Made by a program: the position numbers and the translations under genes. A model generated the notes under the pieces. The model had not been told where the DNA came from. It ran no database searches and worked only from the letters and a program-made list of their open reading frames with translations. 64,000 nucleotides of DNA, taken from the sequence record OP555982.1; one strand, given 5' to 3'. Numbering within the stretch: position 1 is the first letter of the stretch; each line of letters starts with the position of its first letter. This document shows positions 15,387 to 63,576 of this stretch, piece after piece. The DNA is from Escherichia phage vB_EcoM-UFV11.

Positions 15387-15394
15387 TATTTATA
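15387..15394 (-). promoter_or_regulatory. T4 late promoter TATAAATA
   Basis: exact TATAAATA on minus strand ~32 nt upstream of soc ATG. Confidence 0.6.
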
Positions 15395-16126: not shown

Positions 16127-16327
16127 ATGGTACAAAAATTAATGGCACTTGTTAATGCCATCAAAGGTAATAAGAAACGTATAGCTTTTACTATTTCTGC
16201 TATGGTAGGAATTTTACTCTGGAACTTTATTTTATCACCAATTGCAATTGCGCATGGTGTTAATATTCCAGTAGTTACTCTTGATACATTCGTAGATCTA
16301 GCATTTGCTTTAGTTGGGTTGATTTAA
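16127..16327 (+). CDS. hypothetical small membrane protein (plus strand)
   Basis: 66-aa hydrophobic ORF; strong SD AAGGAGG 5 nt before ATG; between 56 and 61. Confidence 0.5.
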   Translation: MVQKLMALVNAIKGNKKRIAFTISAMVGILLWNFILSPIAIAHGVNIPVVTLDTFVDLAFALVGLI

Positions 16328-17352
16328 ATCTTAGCATATTTAGATAGCCGCATTTTAGCCATCAACCCCTGGGCAATATTATTTTTCATATATTCCATAA
16401 TTTGTTCAGGGGTTGCACCTTCCTTTCTAATCATATCATTAACATCTTTAGATTTCCAGGGAGATTTATCCCAAAACATAACCCTTTCTCCTGCATCAAC
16501 TAATTTAGTCATTCGTTTGATAGTGTCAGGGTGACGAGGTTCATTATCTAAAACCCACACTCGTCTATCTTTAAATGGAACAATTTCTAGGTCTAATTGA
16601 CCACCCGTAATAGCTATACCATTTTCAATAAAAAGTGAATCTATAGGTCCTTCTAGAACATATACATCGCCATCTTTAACTCGTTCGACTCCATAGATTT
16701 TTGTTGCCTCAGGATAAGCTTTAATGGTGATATATTTTTGAGGAGCATTTTTCTTTAATGCACGCCCTTGAAACGACTCGGCTTTTCCGTTAGCATTATA
16801 AATTGGAATAACAAGACGAGGCTCAGGTATTTCCTTTTTATATGTTCCCGGTGCTATGCTATTAACCAATTTAGGCCATTCGGTTGTAAACCAAAGATAT
16901 TTCCATTTATCCTTTGGAATACAACGAGCTTTTACGTATTTTATAATTGGATGGTCTTCCGCCAGTTTATCTAATCTAACACATGACGGAAGAGATTTAA
17001 TTATTTTCTTCTCAGGTTGTTTAGGAAGTTCTTTAGGTTTTTCTACTGGACGACTTTTACCTTTTTCTTTTCTTATTTCAAAGATATACTCACGATATAA
17101 ATCAGGTTCAAACTCCTTTAAATATATTCCGATTGGTGCGTGATAGTTACAGTTATAACAATGAATATTTCCTTCATTATTATCACCATAATACCATCCA
17201 CGAGCTTTATTCTGGTCGGTTTTTGAATCTCCACAAACGGGGCATCTAAACCGCAATTTAAAAGTTGAACTATTATTTACTTGTGTGAATTTAGGTAAAT
17301 GAGCCAATGCACGATACGCAAACTCATTATCAATCCAAGGTATTGATGACAT
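16324..17352 (-). CDS. 61: DNA primase gp61 (342 aa)
   Basis: 342-aa ORF; zinc-ribbon CPVCGDSK...CYNCNYH and TOPRIM-like region. Confidence 0.93.
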   Translation of the reverse strand: MSSIPWIDNEFAYRALAHLPKFTQVNNSSTFKLRFRCPVCGDSKTDQNKARGWYYGDNNEGNIHCYNCNYHAPIGIYLKEFEPDLYREYIFEIRKEKGKSRPVEKPKELPKQPEKKIIKSLPSCVRLDKLAEDHPIIKYVKARCIPKDKWKYLWFTTEWPKLVNSIAPGTYKKEIPEPRLVIPIYNANGKAESFQGRALKKNAPQKYITIKAYPEATKIYGVERVKDGDVYVLEGPIDSLFIENGIAITGGQLDLEIVPFKDRRVWVLDNEPRHPDTIKRMTKLVDAGERVMFWDKSPWKSKDVNDMIRKEGATPEQIMEYMKNNIAQGLMAKMRLSKYAKI

Positions 17353-17354
17353 TT

Positions 17355-17519
17355 TTACTCTTCTTTTTCTTTAGATTCCTCTTTTTTCTTTTTAGGAATC
17401 TGTTCAGGACCTTTATTTACTACAGCACCTGATGTTGTTCCAGTAGAGATATTTTCAGGATTACCACCTGAATCTCCAGCAACCATATCTTCTTTAATAA
17501 ATTCTTTATATGTTTTCAT
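17355..17519 (-). CDS. small protein with internal-protein-like N-terminus MKTYKEFIKE
   Basis: 55-aa ORF, Lys/Glu-rich tail, stop 3 nt before gene 61 ATG. Confidence 0.45.
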   Translation of the reverse strand: MKTYKEFIKEDMVAGDSGGNPENISTGTTSGAVVNKGPEQIPKKKKEESKEKEE

Positions 17520-17520
17520 A

Positions 17521-17877
17521 TTAACCTCTATTCATAAAAGCATTAAAAATTTGGTCATCAATCGATGGAATAGCAACTTTTTCTGCATCATTTAGCAAAT
17601 CATTAATTTCATCAGATAGCATAACACATGTACCTTTATTTCCTGTAATTGTTACTGCACAATTACGAACGTTTTCTTTATTAAATTTTAGGTTAATATT
17701 TTCGTAATGAAAATCCTTTAATGCTGAATATATTTTTAAAATAAAATTGTCTTTTACTACAATAAACCCAACCTCACTATTAAAACGTGGTTCATGGAAA
17801 CTGTAATAAACCTTTTCATCTATAAAATCGTATGAAATTTTTTCCATTTTTAAATATGAAAATTCAGAACTATACAT
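17521..17877 (-). CDS. hypothetical protein, paralog of 17879-18520
   Basis: 118-aa ORF; C-terminus SIDDQIFNAFMNRG shared with neighbour. Confidence 0.55.
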   Translation of the reverse strand: MYSSEFSYLKMEKISYDFIDEKVYYSFHEPRFNSEVGFIVVKDNFILKIYSALKDFHYENINLKFNKENVRNCAVTITGNKGTCVMLSDEINDLLNDAEKVAIPSIDDQIFNAFMNRG

Positions 17878-17878
17878 A

Positions 17879-18520
17879 TTAACCTTTATTCATAAAAGCA
17901 TTAAAAATTTGATCGTCAATAGAAACTTTTACTTTAGGATGTTCTTCAAACGGTAATTCATATCCACATATTACAATTTTGTGATCGATACCAAAATACA
18001 CAGAAGCAATATGATTAATATTATTTTCAGTGAAATCTAAATCAACATCAATATCTTTTTGACTAACGCTCAAAGGATAATTAATACGAATAATTCGATT
18101 ATCTTTAACAAAGATTCCACCGACATACTCTGTGTTGCGTTTAAAGTTTACACGTTTCCTAAATGAAAAATATTCAGGTTCTTTATGAGCCCGACTCATA
18201 GGACACAATGAGTAGCTAGAATAAGAGATGTCAAATCCTACACCTTCAATATGAGCCAACGTGTCATGATTAAACCAATTATAATCATACGCCAAATCCA
18301 TTATATTGTAATATGTGAAAGGCACCGGATTAACATCATATATTGTACCTTTAAAATCTGCCCAGGCAACGATTTCATTATCTTTAACAATTACAAAAAT
18401 TGTGCCAATAAGATATCCACGGTTATTTTCATCAGGCGTTATATTATAACATTGTGCATCAGGAAATTTACCGTATTTAAACGGTGGATTTTTGTGCATA
18501 TAATAAATCATATTATTCAC
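17879..18520 (-). CDS. hypothetical protein
   Basis: 213-aa ORF; C-terminus VSIDDQIFNAFMNKG. Confidence 0.55.
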   Translation of the reverse strand: MNNMIYYMHKNPPFKYGKFPDAQCYNITPDENNRGYLIGTIFVIVKDNEIVAWADFKGTIYDVNPVPFTYYNIMDLAYDYNWFNHDTLAHIEGVGFDISYSSYSLCPMSRAHKEPEYFSFRKRVNFKRNTEYVGGIFVKDNRIIRINYPLSVSQKDIDVDLDFTENNINHIASVYFGIDHKIVICGYELPFEEHPKVKVSIDDQIFNAFMNKG

Positions 18521-18806
18521 CTGTGATTTCGGTTACGATATCTTTGTTATCAAAATTAGGGTCACAATACAAAACATAGTTATACTGCATCACACCACCT
18601 GATTTAAGCTGTTTTTGTACTTCAACTTTCATATTGGGACGATCACGCTCAACGATATTCATAATATCCGCTTCAATTTGAGTTTCAACTTCAGTCTGAT
18701 CTGCAGTCATAGACCATTCACACAAATCTTTATCATAACCTGCCATAGCAGGCTGAGCAGCACAAGAAGCTAAAGCAAAAATTGCAGCAAAGATAAATTT
18801 TTTCAT
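18513..18806 (-). CDS. sp: Spackle periplasmic protein Sp (97 aa)
   Basis: 97-aa ORF with signal peptide MKKFIFAAIFALASCAAQPAMA. Confidence 0.75.
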   Translation of the reverse strand: MKKFIFAAIFALASCAAQPAMAGYDKDLCEWSMTADQTEVETQIEADIMNIVERDRPNMKVEVQKQLKSGGVMQYNYVLYCDPNFDNKDIVTEITGE

Positions 18807-19337: not shown

Positions 19338-19367
19338 ACTATACCATAGTCTTGTCAGCTTGTAAAC
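19338..19367 (-). promoter_or_regulatory. T4-type early promoter
   Basis: minus strand GTTTACAAGCTGACAAGACTATGGTATAGT. Confidence 0.5.
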
Positions 19368-20794
19368 TAAAATTTTAATTCATTTGCCAAAGCATCTAAC
19401 TGAGCTCGAGCTGATTCGTTTCTTTGATAGCGATTCTGTTCAGCCTGAATCTGCTGTGAACCTGCTACTTCACTCACTTCGGTTGGAGTAGAATCTTGTT
19501 CAATTTCTACCCATTTTTGATTTCCTTTTTGAACACCCATCAAAAACTTATTCCACTTATTCTTATCACCATATCGTGATTTGATTTGCTTAATGAGTTG
19601 TTGTTCAGCAGCTGCTAGCTCCTCGGTTTCAATGACCGCAAGCATAAAATCAGCTGTTGCTGGAAGACCAGCAGATTCTGCAATATCGCTCATGTTAACA
19701 TCGGAAGAGTCCCAAGCTTGTTTACCGACCTGTGCTGCAGTCCAAAGAACAGTTTCTGTTTCAACAGCCAGAGCACGTAATTCCTCTGCAATAGCTTTAA
19801 CAGTGGTGTAACTATTTTCTGAATAAACTCTAATGCGGCAAGATTTACAAATACCTAGATAGTCGACAATAATGATTGTTGGAACAAAATTCTTTTTGAG
19901 CTTCAATTCATTCAAGAGAGACCTGAATGTGTTAGCGTCTGCTCCACCAGTAGGATATTGCTTAACGATTAAACGACCGAGAGTAGATTTCTCACGCCAT
20001 TTTTCCATTTTTCCTTTATACTCGGCATAAGAAATATGTCCATCATCAATATCGTCAAGAGAAACATCGAGCATGTTAGCATCAATACGTTTAGCACAGA
20101 CTTCTTCTGCCATTTCCATGGAGATATAAAGAACGTTATGACCAAGCTGCAAATAATCTGCTGCTAATGAACAAAGTCCTAATGATTTACCAACGTTAAC
20201 GCCAGCCATTAAAACGTTCAGTGTTCCAGTCTCAGCTCCGCCTTTAGTAATTTTGTTTAGAATTCTGAGTTTAAATGGAACCTTACGAGCTTTATTCATA
20301 TAAGATAGCCAACGCGCTTCATAGTCATCCATCCAATCATGACCAACGTAGCTATCAAATGAAATTGATAATGCTTGGCGCATGATGTCAGGAATAGCAC
20401 CTACATCTGGCATTTTCTTATTTCGTTTTTCCGGAGGAAGCTCAGCATTAGTTTGAATTTCAATTATTTTAGATGTGGCGTTAAACATCGCCCTTTGCTG
20501 AACATATTTTTCTGTTTCTTTTACTAACCAGCTATGGTCTTCCGGAGAATCGGCCAGTTTTGAAATAAGTGTTTTTACACCAGAATATTCTGTTTCAGTA
20601 AATGAACTATTTTCTAATGCAACATTTAACGCATTAATAGATGGAACGTTATGGTATTCATTAACATGAGATTTAATTAATTTGAATGTATTTTTAGCTG
20701 GACCACTTTCAAAATATTCTGAATCCATATATGGCCAAACTTTTGAAAAATAAGCTTGATCAAATATGAGATGAGAAAGAATAATTTCTACCAC
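19367..20794 (-). CDS. 41: replicative DNA helicase gp41 (475 aa)
   Basis: DnaB-family motifs; GTG start at 20794 with SD AAGGAG. Confidence 0.93.
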   Translation of the reverse strand: MVEIILSHLIFDQAYFSKVWPYMDSEYFESGPAKNTFKLIKSHVNEYHNVPSINALNVALENSSFTETEYSGVKTLISKLADSPEDHSWLVKETEKYVQQRAMFNATSKIIEIQTNAELPPEKRNKKMPDVGAIPDIMRQALSISFDSYVGHDWMDDYEARWLSYMNKARKVPFKLRILNKITKGGAETGTLNVLMAGVNVGKSLGLCSLAADYLQLGHNVLYISMEMAEEVCAKRIDANMLDVSLDDIDDGHISYAEYKGKMEKWREKSTLGRLIVKQYPTGGADANTFRSLLNELKLKKNFVPTIIIVDYLGICKSCRIRVYSENSYTTVKAIAEELRALAVETETVLWTAAQVGKQAWDSSDVNMSDIAESAGLPATADFMLAVIETEELAAAEQQLIKQIKSRYGDKNKWNKFLMGVQKGNQKWVEIEQDSTPTEVSEVAGSQQIQAEQNRYQRNESARAQLDALANELKF

Positions 20795-40189: not shown

Positions 40190-40513
40190 TTAGTCTTCTA
40201 TGATATCTCTATCATATCCAAGTGAAATGAGAGTTTCTTTGAAGTGTTTAATGTTCTTTTGTCTAGAATCATTAATGAAAATGACAGGATACCGAATATT
40301 AAGAGATGTGAATCCGGCGCGTTTGGCAAGAGATACAATCAGTGGACGATCATACTCAATCTTACCATTATTAGTAAGAACTTTATAGAAAGTAAAAGGA
40401 GCATTGAGCTCCTTTAGAAGTTTTGTAACTGATTGACATCCAGGACAACGACCTACTTCATCTGGAATTCCATAGACTTCAATCTTATTCTTTAAGTTCG
40501 AGTTTTGTTCCAC
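40190..40513 (-). CDS. glutaredoxin/NrdH-like redoxin (CPGC active site)
   Basis: thioredoxin-fold ORF with RCPGCQ; no in-frame ATG after upstream stop; candidate GTG start at 40513 with SD AAGGA; alternative start at 40642. Confidence 0.45.
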   Translation of the reverse strand: MEQNSNLKNKIEVYGIPDEVGRCPGCQSVTKLLKELNAPFTFYKVLTNNGKIEYDRPLIVSLAKRAGFTSLNIRYPVIFINDSRQKNIKHFKETLISLGYDRDIIED

Positions 40514-40796
40514 GAGAAATAATTCCTTGGTAAGCCCAATAAGGAGGATTAACAGAATCCTCACCAGAGTTTTCTTCAGGAAAATAAACCTGGATAACGA
40601 AGCCGGATTCATCAAAGGTGAAATAAGTAGTAGGCAGTTCACCTAACAAATCGGCACGAGCATTAATTTCTTCGAGGTCTTGTTCACGTCCAACCCAGAA
40701 GCTTGGGTTCAGACTACATTCATAGAAATAATAGTCATTACCGAACATATCAAAACCATTCCAACTCTCTACTACATACCGCTCAAAACTAATCAT
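40485..40796 (-). CDS. hypothetical protein
   Basis: 103-aa ORF. Confidence 0.5.
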   Translation of the reverse strand: MISFERYVVESWNGFDMFGNDYYFYECSLNPSFWVGREQDLEEINARADLLGELPTTYFTFDESGFVIQVYFPEENSGEDSVNPPYWAYQGIISRGTKLELKE

Positions 40797-62768: not shown

Positions 62769-63242
62769 TTATTTGAATGATTTAACGTACTGAATAGAAC
62801 CTTTACTATTCACAAAGGCAATTTTACCATTTTTGTTATACATAGTAGCAGTACGTTGATAGCCATAAGTTTGTTTACCAGATTGATAACCAACTAATGC
62901 GAAATTATCTTCACCCATTTTATTCTGTTTAGCGCGAATGCGTTCATGACCATGTGCCATAAGAACCTTAGCATCACCAGTTGCAATGGACCGACGAGTT
63001 TTTTCATCTTCAACTGTATTAACAAAGTCGTCAAATGAATCAAATTTAGCATGAGATTTATTATACAGTTTTCCATCTACTGCATAATTATATCCTTGTA
63101 CATCCATCTCAACTTCTGTACCATCATCTAATACCGCAGTAATTTTCTGTCCTTTTTTAAATTTCAAAAGATCAGTAAAAGATTCAGCAATAATTTGAGA
63201 ATTAATAGCTGCTTCAGTAATAAATTCTTTATACGTTTTCAT
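62769..63242 (-). CDS. capsid internal protein (IPIII-like)
   Basis: 157-aa ORF; N-terminal MKTYKEFITEA as in T4 internal-protein targeting sequences. Confidence 0.65.
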   Translation of the reverse strand: MKTYKEFITEAAINSQIIAESFTDLLKFKKGQKITAVLDDGTEVEMDVQGYNYAVDGKLYNKSHAKFDSFDDFVNTVEDEKTRRSIATGDAKVLMAHGHERIRAKQNKMGEDNFALVGYQSGKQTYGYQRTATMYNKNGKIAFVNSKGSIQYVKSFK

Positions 63243-63258
63243 GTGTATCCTTTAATTT

Positions 63259-63576
63259 TTATTCTTTAGGGAAGTTTTTAGAATATGCATCATAAAGCTT
63301 ATTTCCAATACGGCGGAAAACTCTAGCCGCAAAACGATTTTCTGGGTTTTTAATCATGATTTGCATCATATAAGTACCCGCGTCAGAAAGAGCTTCTTCA
63401 TAGTACCCGTTAATTTCTTTAAGAGTCCTACGTTTACCACCAGGACCATCAACAGTGATTTTCCATTTACCTGTAGAAGTGCGACTTGGCGGTTCAACTT
63501 GTTCAATCCAGATATAACCGCCTTCTACACGCTGTCCTGCAACAGATTCTGCAATAAATTCTTTATACGTTTTCAT
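63259..63576 (-). CDS. capsid internal protein (IPII-like)
   Basis: 105-aa ORF; N-terminal MKTYKEFIAES; 5' DNA near-identical to neighbour. Confidence 0.65.
   Translation of the reverse strand: MKTYKEFIAESVAGQRVEGGYIWIEQVEPPSRTSTGKWKITVDGPGGKRRTLKEINGYYEEALSDAGTYMMQIMIKNPENRFAARVFRRIGNKLYDAYSKNFPKE

Follow-up and report, generated by a model that had tools for sequence, protein, structure and literature searches.

Gene 61.1 of Escherichia phage vB_EcoM-UFV11 combines a leader resembling the capsid-targeting sequence with a module homologous to the cleavage junction and N-fist of gp23

Gene 61.1 and the parts of its product

We analysed a stretch of 64,000 nucleotides from Escherichia phage vB_EcoM-UFV11 (sequence record OP555982.1), referred to below as the window, in which a small gene on the minus strand, gene 61.1, lies just upstream of the DNA primase gene. 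A preliminary description of the window had placed a 55-aa gene here, coding for a small Lys/Glu-rich protein. The gene is indeed present, but its length is 54 amino acids (aa) plus a stop codon, and only the tail of the product is rich in Lys and Glu; the body is a homologue of the cleavage junction and N-fist of gp23, the major capsid protein. The open reading frame (ORF) at 17355-17519 carries the label 61.1 in the relatives AR1 and RB51, and its product, gp61.1, matches phrog_1823 over its full length (E 7e-34) and differs from gp61.1 of phage T4 at 2 residues. Over 16300-18600 the window matches Escherichia phage vB_EcoM-UFV09 (Tequatrovirus) with 100% identity and at nearly the same coordinates. 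The gene and the parts that we distinguish in it are as follows.

17355-17519, minus strand: gene 61.1 coding sequence, short (Tequatrovirus) form, 54 codons plus stop; protein MKTYKEFIKEDMVAGDSGGNPENISTGTTSGAVVNKGPEQIPKKKKEESKEKEE
17490-17519, minus strand: codons 1-10, MKTYKEFIKE, leader resembling the capsid-targeting sequence and ending in the predicted gp21 site I8-K9-E10
17406-17489, minus strand: codons 11-38, DMVAGDSGGNPENISTGTTSGAVVNKGP, module homologous to gp23* residues 66-93 (N-fist)
17358-17405, minus strand: codons 39-54, EQIPKKKKEESKEKEE, Lys/Glu-rich tail encoded by A-runs

Homology to the gp23 cleavage junction and N-fist

In a BLASTP comparison with gp23 of the same phage, residues 2-38 of gp61.1 aligned to gp23 residues 57-93 at 43% identity and without gaps (E 1e-8). 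A tblastn search with gp61.1 against 50,697 phage records also matched the gene 23 product of Acinetobacter phage 133, at residues 56-93 and with a database-wide E-value of 3e-4. We built a profile from 36 diverse members of the 61.1 family and compared it with all PDB sequences: the top match was T4 gp23 (E 9.9e-12, gp23 residues 59-101), followed by three mature-gp23 entries at 2e-9, and the next unrelated protein had an E-value of 0.05. An hhalign comparison of the longer family members described below with gp23 N-termini from six genera gave a probability of 98.5% and an E-value of 3e-15 over 41 columns. This alignment was confined to gp23 61-101, with no homology extending into the Delta propeptide beyond it or into the N-terminal domain of the long forms.

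The segment of gp23 that is matched comprises the end of the Delta propeptide, the cleavage site of the prohead protease gp21 (LTE65↓A66, the arrow marking the cut), and the start of mature gp23*. Before the head expands, gp23 residues 66-105 are disordered, face its interior and probably touch the scaffolding core. Expansion brings them to the outside, and they then make up the N-arm and the N-fist, an unusual element of 25 residues that touches four subunits and has a part in forming the Soc binding site (PMC9546572, PMC9958956). When gp61.1 is aligned with this segment, its I8-K9-E10↓ falls on L63-T64-E65↓ of gp23, its Y4 and F7 on F59 and F62, and the start of its tail on gp23 94-101 (AVMGMVRR).

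The preliminary description had suggested looking for a prohead-protease site behind the leader motif, and a putative one, I8-K9-E10, lies in exactly that place. Among 68 distinct relatives, the column of gp23 E65 holds Glu in all 68, while the P3 position (two before the Glu) is L or I in 54 and L, I, M, V or F in 65, against a tripeptide background of 0.033 per position. Conservation of this kind points to strong selection on the junction, as expected if the prohead protease cuts there as it does in gp23.

The two modules have each kept their own fixed differences, GDSGG and KGP in 61.1 against GDHGY and IGP in gp23. When we compared seven 61.1 sequences with six gp23 sequences (T4 61.1 being without its own gp23 as a partner), there was no diagonal signal of co-variation or gene conversion; all pairings alike had 13-17 identical residues out of 30. 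Because 61.1 does not track the gp23 of its own phage, the duplication is old, with both copies separately constrained.

We found no Pfam or NCBIfam domain in gp61.1, even at an E-value of 10, and no Pfam domain in the long forms; the PHROG matches of gp61.1 are phrog_1823 and phrog_2086, with no others. The P and A domains of the HK97 fold were not encountered, as only about 41 residues align, and these align to gp23. Several database records and UniRef name 61.1 a 'major capsid domain-containing protein', a name that reflects only this fragment. Since the homology is limited to the junction and the N-fist, gp61.1 is not a capsid protein; at the same time, a body homologous to these parts of gp23 changes the most plausible role of 61.1. 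On its own, the N-fist-like module of gp61.1 is predicted to be disordered. No paper in the literature that we searched discusses the function of gp61.1 and, to our knowledge, a free-standing and conserved fragment paralogue of the major capsid cleavage junction has not been described there; databases flag the likeness by automatic name only.

The leader shared with the internal-protein genes

The preliminary description had reported that the motif MKTYKEFI starts three genes at two distant loci, and our scans bear this out. The 23-mer ATGAAAACRTATAAAGAATTTAT has exactly three matches in the window, a number that does not change when up to three mismatches are allowed, and a mean of 0.00 matches in 100 dinucleotide-preserving shuffles. 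It starts 61.1 and two internal-protein (IP) genes, and a six-frame protein scan for the leader returned the same three ORFs and no further ones. Both IP genes adjoin the lysozyme gene e, at the ipIII/ipII position of T4.

62769-63242, minus strand: internal virion protein gene at the ipII position, 157 aa, MKTYKEFITE; phrog_3155 (E 1.6e-101), Pfam DUF7412
63259-63576, minus strand: internal-protein-like gene at the ipIII position, 105 aa, MKTYKEFIAE; phrog_3966 (function unknown)

That the 105-aa gene encodes an internal protein we infer only from its leader and its locus beside e. The leader of gp61.1 is identical at 9 of 10 residues to the IP leaders of its own phage and at 8 of 10 to MKTYQEFIAE, with which both IPII and IPIII of T4 begin in translation; T4 gp61.1 begins MKTFKEFIKE. 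In IPIII, the first 10 residues, the capsid-targeting sequence (CTS), are enough for incorporation into the head (PMC9026906, a review of Black's work). Targeting rests mainly on residues 4 and 7 and processing on residues 8 and 10, and the change E10D blocks processing while leaving targeting intact (PMC9026906). With Y4 (F4 in T4), F7, I8 and E10, the leader of gp61.1 is compatible with the T4 CTS at all four critical positions, and the earlier proposal that it is of the capsid-targeting type therefore looks sound as far as the residues go; it resembles a characterised targeting signal, a likeness that does not in itself demonstrate the function. The IP targeting sequence, gp61.1 and gp23 (FGSFLTE) all fit the pattern [YF]xxF[IL]xE.

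The same description had noted near-identical DNA around the three start codons and had read it as a mobile targeting cassette. The identity holds for codons 1-8 and for the GAA of codon 10, but it is limited to these: the flanks on both sides show no DNA relation between 61.1 and the IP genes, and the ribosome-binding context that the IP pair has in common, TTAAAGGA[AT]ACACATG, is lacking in 61.1. The Thr codon is the rare ACG (8% usage) in both IP genes and ACA in 61.1, and the remaining shared codons are those that the phage prefers. Using codon frequencies from 46 long ORFs in the window, we calculated that two independent genes for the leader peptide would differ at 2.9 codons on average, and that they would differ at no more than one codon with a probability of about 0.14. 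The identity of the leader peptides is thus highly non-random, but the identity of the DNA needs no recently moved cassette.

Recent transfer of the leader by recombination between the IP genes and 61.1, an explanation that concerns its origin and not its function, accordingly seems improbable to us. It would account for the 23 of 24 nucleotides at which 61.1 and the IP genes agree, and for K5 in the IP leaders of this phage as in 61.1, where T4 IPs have Q5; moreover, the leader in Tequatrovirus replaces an N-terminal domain of about 110 aa, so some recombination or deletion must once have made the short form. Against it stand the unrelated flanks, the codon statistics and the fixed position of 61.1 between genes 41 and 61, and we do not retain the mobile cassette. 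MK[TS][FY] leaders also occur on distant short forms, in Aes012 and in metagenomic sequence, which makes the association of leader and gene either old or recurrent.

Several other genes bear on the leader. Compared with T4 65416-66415, the IP genes of the window keep the locus, the leader and the ribosome-binding context, while their lengths are 157 and 105 aa instead of 100 and 193 aa, which suggests replacement of the cargo behind a constant leader. A fourth ORF with a strict IP-type leader is found in the UFV09 record at 66842-67315 (minus strand; 157 aa, MKSYTQFLNE↓AVLNE..., phrog_2280, function unknown), with the e region on one side and the tRNA cluster on the other, which brings the phage to at least four genes with MK[TS]Y leaders, at three loci. 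UvsW.1 (76-77 aa) has a CTS-like start of the form aromatic-x-x-[FI]-[LIV]-x-E↓A in four phages, UFV09 (109636-109869), RB16 (L010:10956-11186, minus strand), Aes012 (L011:19148-19381) and phiR1-RT (L016:153-383); the starts are MLLEFKQFLYE↓A, MKSFTEFVNE↓A, MGMFQQFIAE↓A and MIKPFKEILQE↓A. In phiR1-RT, UvsW.1 (Gp188) is the top-scoring small protein in liquid chromatography-tandem mass spectrometry (LC-MS/MS) of particles, with a score of 196.7, 71% coverage and 8 peptides, and it may be another packaged, gp21-processed protein. A loose scan for CTS-like starts over the whole UFV09 genome also returned probable chance matches, and it is the strict MK[TS]Y leader alone that is informative. One loose match to the leader pattern in the window, the 103-aa ORF at 40485-40796 (minus strand; phrog_2749, function unknown), which begins MISFERYVVE↓S, is probably due to chance.

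Distribution and forms of the 61.1 family

By tblastn, the 61.1 family is present in 1,396 phage records from many host genera. Searched exhaustively with phmmer, 1.8 billion cluster representatives yielded 31 proteins of 50-251 aa, and a word-indexed profile search found 84 long forms. The gene adjoins the 5' side of the primase gene in RB69 (Mosigvirus), RB16 (Pseudotevenvirus), Octan (Lazarusvirus) and phiR1-RT (Tegunavirus), and in phage 133 it is next to the primase gene on that side or at most one ORF away. In Aes012 (Tulanevirus) it directly follows gene 41, with one ORF between it and the primase gene, and a T4-like contig from a metagenome has the genes in the order uvsX-40-41-61.1-61. 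The position between 41 and 61 is fixed from Tequatrovirus to the Acinetobacter and Aeromonas phages, and it is not the polymorphic IP locus. The family searches gave no match for gp61.1 beyond the 61.1 PHROGs, and hence none to a characterised anti-defence protein; the distribution of the family is wide and not sporadic, and in other genera 61.1 has different neighbours.

Most genera of the Straboviridae have a long form of 150-165 aa between 41 and 61, consisting of a conserved helical N-terminal domain of about 110 residues, the junction with the N-fist, and a basic tail. The junction of the long forms follows the pattern P-L-[FY]-E↓[DE]-MVAGD[SA]GG...NIA[SA]G.T[ST]G..V...GP. Tequatrovirus and scattered other lineages have short forms with a leader in place of the N-terminal domain, and these leaders very often begin MK[TS][FY].[ED][FLV]. 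Nearly all relatives have a basic tail.

Some members depart from these two forms. In the RB69 reference, a frameshift splits the long form into ORF032c, which holds the start of the N-terminal domain, and the annotated 61.1 (L004:899-1090 and 1087-1365); the long form is intact in the Mosigvirus-like proteins P0054 and P0060, and the split could be a sequencing error, a pseudogenised N-terminal domain or a programmed shift. In fusion forms of 240-250 aa (P0030, P0048, P0125 and P0126; L014:5001-5720), the N-terminal domain and the N-fist module are followed by KKRKK, by another stretch of CTS-like sequence (MNEVxxFxQF[VK]E...) and by an uncharacterised C-terminal domain of about 95 aa. This layout resembles that of a polyprotein with a pair of protease junctions; P0126 sits between gp41 and gp61 on a T4-like contig from a metagenome. 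In T6-type variants (62 aa, ...PKKKKRNLKKKKSKNVINTLD; P0002 and P0004), a 1-nt deletion in an A-run, corresponding to about 17370-17400 of the window, puts the tail in an alternative frame that is still Lys-rich and runs into the primase start. Either the exact sequence of the tail seems to be unimportant or the A-run is a slippage hotspot. Finally, in P0018 and P0027, gp61.1 sequences from public metagenome or run assemblies, all C-containing codons read as if C had been changed to T (T to I, S to L or F, P to F, A to V), and these two look like bisulfite-converted or deaminated reads that were assembled and translated.

Detection in phage particles

The product of a long form has been found in a particle preparation. 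LC-MS/MS of purified particles detected Gp036 of phiR1-RT, a gp61.1 of 160 aa that is 98% identical to P0121, by 9 unique peptides covering 61.9% of its sequence (PMC6893735 supplement). It heads the hypothetical proteins that the authors re-annotated as structural, and it has more peptides than Inh, gp22, gp13, gp14 and gp68 or gp67 in the same table (PMC6893735). In an in-silico digest, fully tryptic peptides of 6-35 residues covered at most 54% of Gp036. For the reported coverage to be reached, the N-terminal domain must have been present in the particle preparation; the digest and the coverage fit a cleaved and an uncleaved junction alike. The papers on fHyAci03 and on DLP1/DLP2 contain no virion proteomics.

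Genomic neighbourhood and expression

The elements that surround 61.1 in the window are the following.

17525-17528, minus strand: Shine-Dalgarno sequence GAGG, 5 nt 5' of the 61.1 ATG; context ...aatagaggttaat atg
16324-17352, minus strand: gene 61 (DNA primase), conserved neighbour downstream of 61.1
17521-17877, minus strand: truncated 61.2 paralogue
17879-18520, minus strand: full AdfA/61.2 gene (Pfam PF23813, E 1.5e-136)
19367-20794, minus strand: helicase gene 41

The order on the minus strand is 41, several small ORFs including spackle, AdfA/61.2, the truncated 61.2 paralogue, 61.1, 61 and the dCTPase gene 56. The Shine-Dalgarno sequence of 61.1 sits within the 3' end of the upstream 61.2-like gene, a context that is the same in T4. 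The stop codon of 61.1 is separated from the primase ATG by a 2-nt gap, and the two genes are probably co-transcribed. A good sigma-70-like early promoter lies just past gene 41, at 19366-19338. A MotA-box-like sequence overlaps the start codon of 61.1 and cannot serve 61.1 itself.

The head-gene cluster 20-67-68-21-22-23 lies at 97-103 kb of the genome and 61.1 at 17 kb. Because gene 40, which encodes a head-assembly chaperone, is found in the same replication cluster as 61.1, this location is no argument against a role in the head. In the PHROGs, gp61.1 shows no sequence relation to gp67, gp68 or gp22.

The AdfA/61.2 genes (anti-DarT factor A) are themselves tandem paralogues, a full copy of 213 aa and a copy of 118 aa that matches the C-terminal half only. 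Both end in SIDDQIFNAFMN[RK]G, and both junctions read AATGCTTTTATGAATA[GA]AGGTTAATATG, resembling a MotA box with a -10 element.

A model for gp61.1 and its alternatives

We propose, with about even confidence, that the leader and the gp23-like junction of gp61.1 direct it to the prohead, where gp21 cuts it after E10 to give a 44-residue, N-fist-like peptide with a basic tail. Judging from the sequence features described above, 61.1 is probably a small, hitherto unrecognised head-assembly peptide and not a random small ORF. The protein, with its 10-residue CTS-type leader, its predicted gp21 site I-K-E10↓, its 28-residue N-fist-like module and its Lys/Glu-rich tail, would be made from early and middle transcripts alongside helicase 41 and primase 61, and would then persist. 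During prohead assembly, the leader and the gp23-like junction would dock it on the scaffolding core, in the manner of the gp23 N-terminal region and the internal proteins. Activated gp21 would then cut after E10, in the same register as gp23 after E65. The product would begin DMVAGDSGGNPENIS(I/T)GTTSGAVVNK, and the predicted non-tryptic N-terminal peptide is DMVAGDSGGNPENISIGTTSGAVVNK in T4 and ...ISTGTT... in UFV09; for the long form of phiR1-RT, the predicted cut is after VLE109 and the product SMVAGNASALGTSPEHNAENIASGTTTGAVVNK. The mature peptide might stay in the head with the DNA, and perhaps be ejected into the host as the preliminary description had it; alternatively, it might act during maturation, act in trans on the capsid lattice, or be lost.

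A more specific version has the cut peptide acting on the capsid lattice, where it would fill N-fist sockets without a gp23 donor near the gp24 vertices or the portal, or would tune expansion or the Soc site. As a corollary, the CTS of the internal proteins would imitate gp23 59-65 (FGSFLTE), so that these proteins would gain entry to the head as mimics of the gp23 propeptide junction, with gp61.1 as the sequence that connects the two. We consider this version rather unlikely.

A number of observations weigh against the proposal that gp61.1 is packaged and cut. The P1' residue is mostly Asp or Glu in the 61.1 family, where gp23, IPII and IPIII have Ala and gp24 has Ser. There is no late promoter TATAAATA 5' of 61.1, the only minus-strand sites in the window being at 15387 and 57385. 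In T4 the transcript of 61.1 is classed as early, and the protein was undetected in the time-course proteome (PMC9697503 supplement). T4 ipII, ipIII and ipI, however, are likewise 'early RNA, late protein' (PMC9697503 supplement), so that early synthesis of 61.1 is compatible with a role in the head. Mass spectrometry of T4 heads identified 13 gp21 sites in 9 head proteins, and gp61.1 is not mentioned among them, which makes an abundant retained peptide unlikely. The phiR1-RT particle table contains carry-over proteins, namely gp32, lysozyme, thymidylate synthase and DNA polymerase (PMC6893735), and the detection of Gp036 is therefore supportive but not decisive. In addition, a CTS is missing from the N-terminus of the long forms and their N-terminal domain must have been in the preparation, so that a simple scheme of propeptide plus cargo does not transfer to them cleanly.

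One alternative, which we regard as unlikely, is that gp61.1 is never packaged and acts in the cytoplasm as a capsid mimic, either blunting a host factor that recognises capsids (a defence sensor, chaperone or protease) or acting on gp21 as a regulator or a competing substrate while proheads are still incomplete. The early RNA class and the lack of a late promoter at 61.1 would fit this, as would the predicted disorder of the lone module, which suits a binding mimic. The neighbours of 61.1 in Tequatrovirus are anti-defence or host-interaction genes, AdfA (61.2) and, in T4, spackle and dmd, and defence systems that sense gp23 do exist, for example CmdTAC (PMC11618068). Anti-defence genes are sporadic, though, whereas this family is near-universal and keeps a fixed position across the Straboviridae, and there are no anti-defence neighbours in Aes012 or in the metagenomic contig, where 61.1 directly follows 41. 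An early capsid-like peptide should, furthermore, trigger a capsid sensor and not block it, and a cytoplasmic mimic predicts neither the strict conservation of the cleavage motif nor detection in particles. The invariable place of the gene between 41 and 61, its translational coupling to primase across the 2-nt gap, its early expression and its basic tail would instead suit an accessory of the helicase-primase, with the Lys-rich tail binding DNA or gp41/gp61 and the likeness to the CTS and gp23 an evolutionary leftover. We consider this very improbable: a leftover would not keep a protease motif in 65-68 of 68 relatives or an N-fist at E-values of 1e-11 to 1e-15, the tail tolerates a frameshift, head gene 40 is in this cluster too, and the coverage of the particle-associated orthologue is higher than that of replication proteins in the same table.

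A third alternative overlaps with the model of targeting and cleavage proposed above. Here gp61.1 would be an accessory of the capsid or its maturation by virtue of its N-fist, inserting, cut or uncut, into donor-less N-fist sockets of the gp23 lattice, for example at gp24 vertices or the portal, or modulating expansion or the Soc site. The homology spans exactly the N-fist and the first residues of the N-arm, the N-fist of gp23 contacts four subunits and aids the Soc sites, and the orthologue is particle-associated; both modules are strongly conserved, with differences fixed in each, and this suggests that they bind in related but not identical ways. We nonetheless find this quite unlikely, because the papers that we consulted on near-atomic maps of the T4 capsid report no N-fist-like density left unassigned, the one extra density that they note being helical and under gp24, and because 61.1 shows no co-variation with its own gp23.

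Comparison with known head proteins

IPII and IPIII (and IPI) share with gp61.1 a 10-residue MKT[YF]xEFIxE leader with aromatic residues at positions 4 and 7 and an (I/L)-x-E ending (Mullaney & Black 1996, as reviewed in PMC9026906), and they too are small and basic proteins with early RNA in T4. Unlike the IP genes, which occupy a variable locus, 61.1 is conserved and keeps its place between 41 and 61; it has a gp23-homologous body where the internal proteins have unrelated cargo, and it is without the IP ribosome-binding context. Since it lies outside the polymorphic locus and lacks the shared initiation context, and since its packaging is so far a prediction, we do not class it as an internal protein.

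With gp23, gp61.1 has about 41 homologous residues in common, in the same register and with the cleavage site included, following the pattern GD-G---NIA-G-[TS]SGA[VI]---GP. It differs from gp23 in having no HK97-fold body and no Delta domain, in having a Lys-rich tail where gp23 has the N-arm, and in being early and not late. The vertex protein gp24 is another second gene derived from gp23 and, like 61.1, has a gp21 site near its N-terminus (LRE10↓S in gp24; predicted in 61.1). In gp24, however, the whole fold was duplicated and there is no N-fist motif, while 61.1 consists of the junction and N-fist only. A likeness can also be drawn to gp67 and gp68, small core proteins that gp21 cleaves at (L/I)xE sites, with some of the resulting peptides retained; unlike 61.1, gp67 and gp68 are encoded in the late head cluster 20-67-68-21-22-23, are acidic, and have no PHROG in common with it. 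The long form, in which a protease motif with a final Glu comes after a domain of about 110 aa, has a possible analogue in another phage lineage, where the motif is AxE. The N-terminal domain of the phiR1-RT long form is present in the particle preparation and is not simply discarded, unlike that of this analogue.

Implications for T4 head assembly

The assembly of the T4 head is among the best-studied of such pathways, yet the selection of proteins for the scaffolding core is still called mysterious (PMC9958956). Gene 61.1 offers a handle on what the core or gp21 recognises, the pattern aromatic-x-x-F-[IL]-x-E being common to the CTS, gp61.1 and gp23, and on whether the N-fist can act in trans. 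Its product is a candidate component of the T4 head, and might perhaps be used as a second natural module for targeting foreign proteins into T4 heads. Were gp61.1 instead a cytoplasmic capsid mimic, it would represent a new kind of small phage effector.

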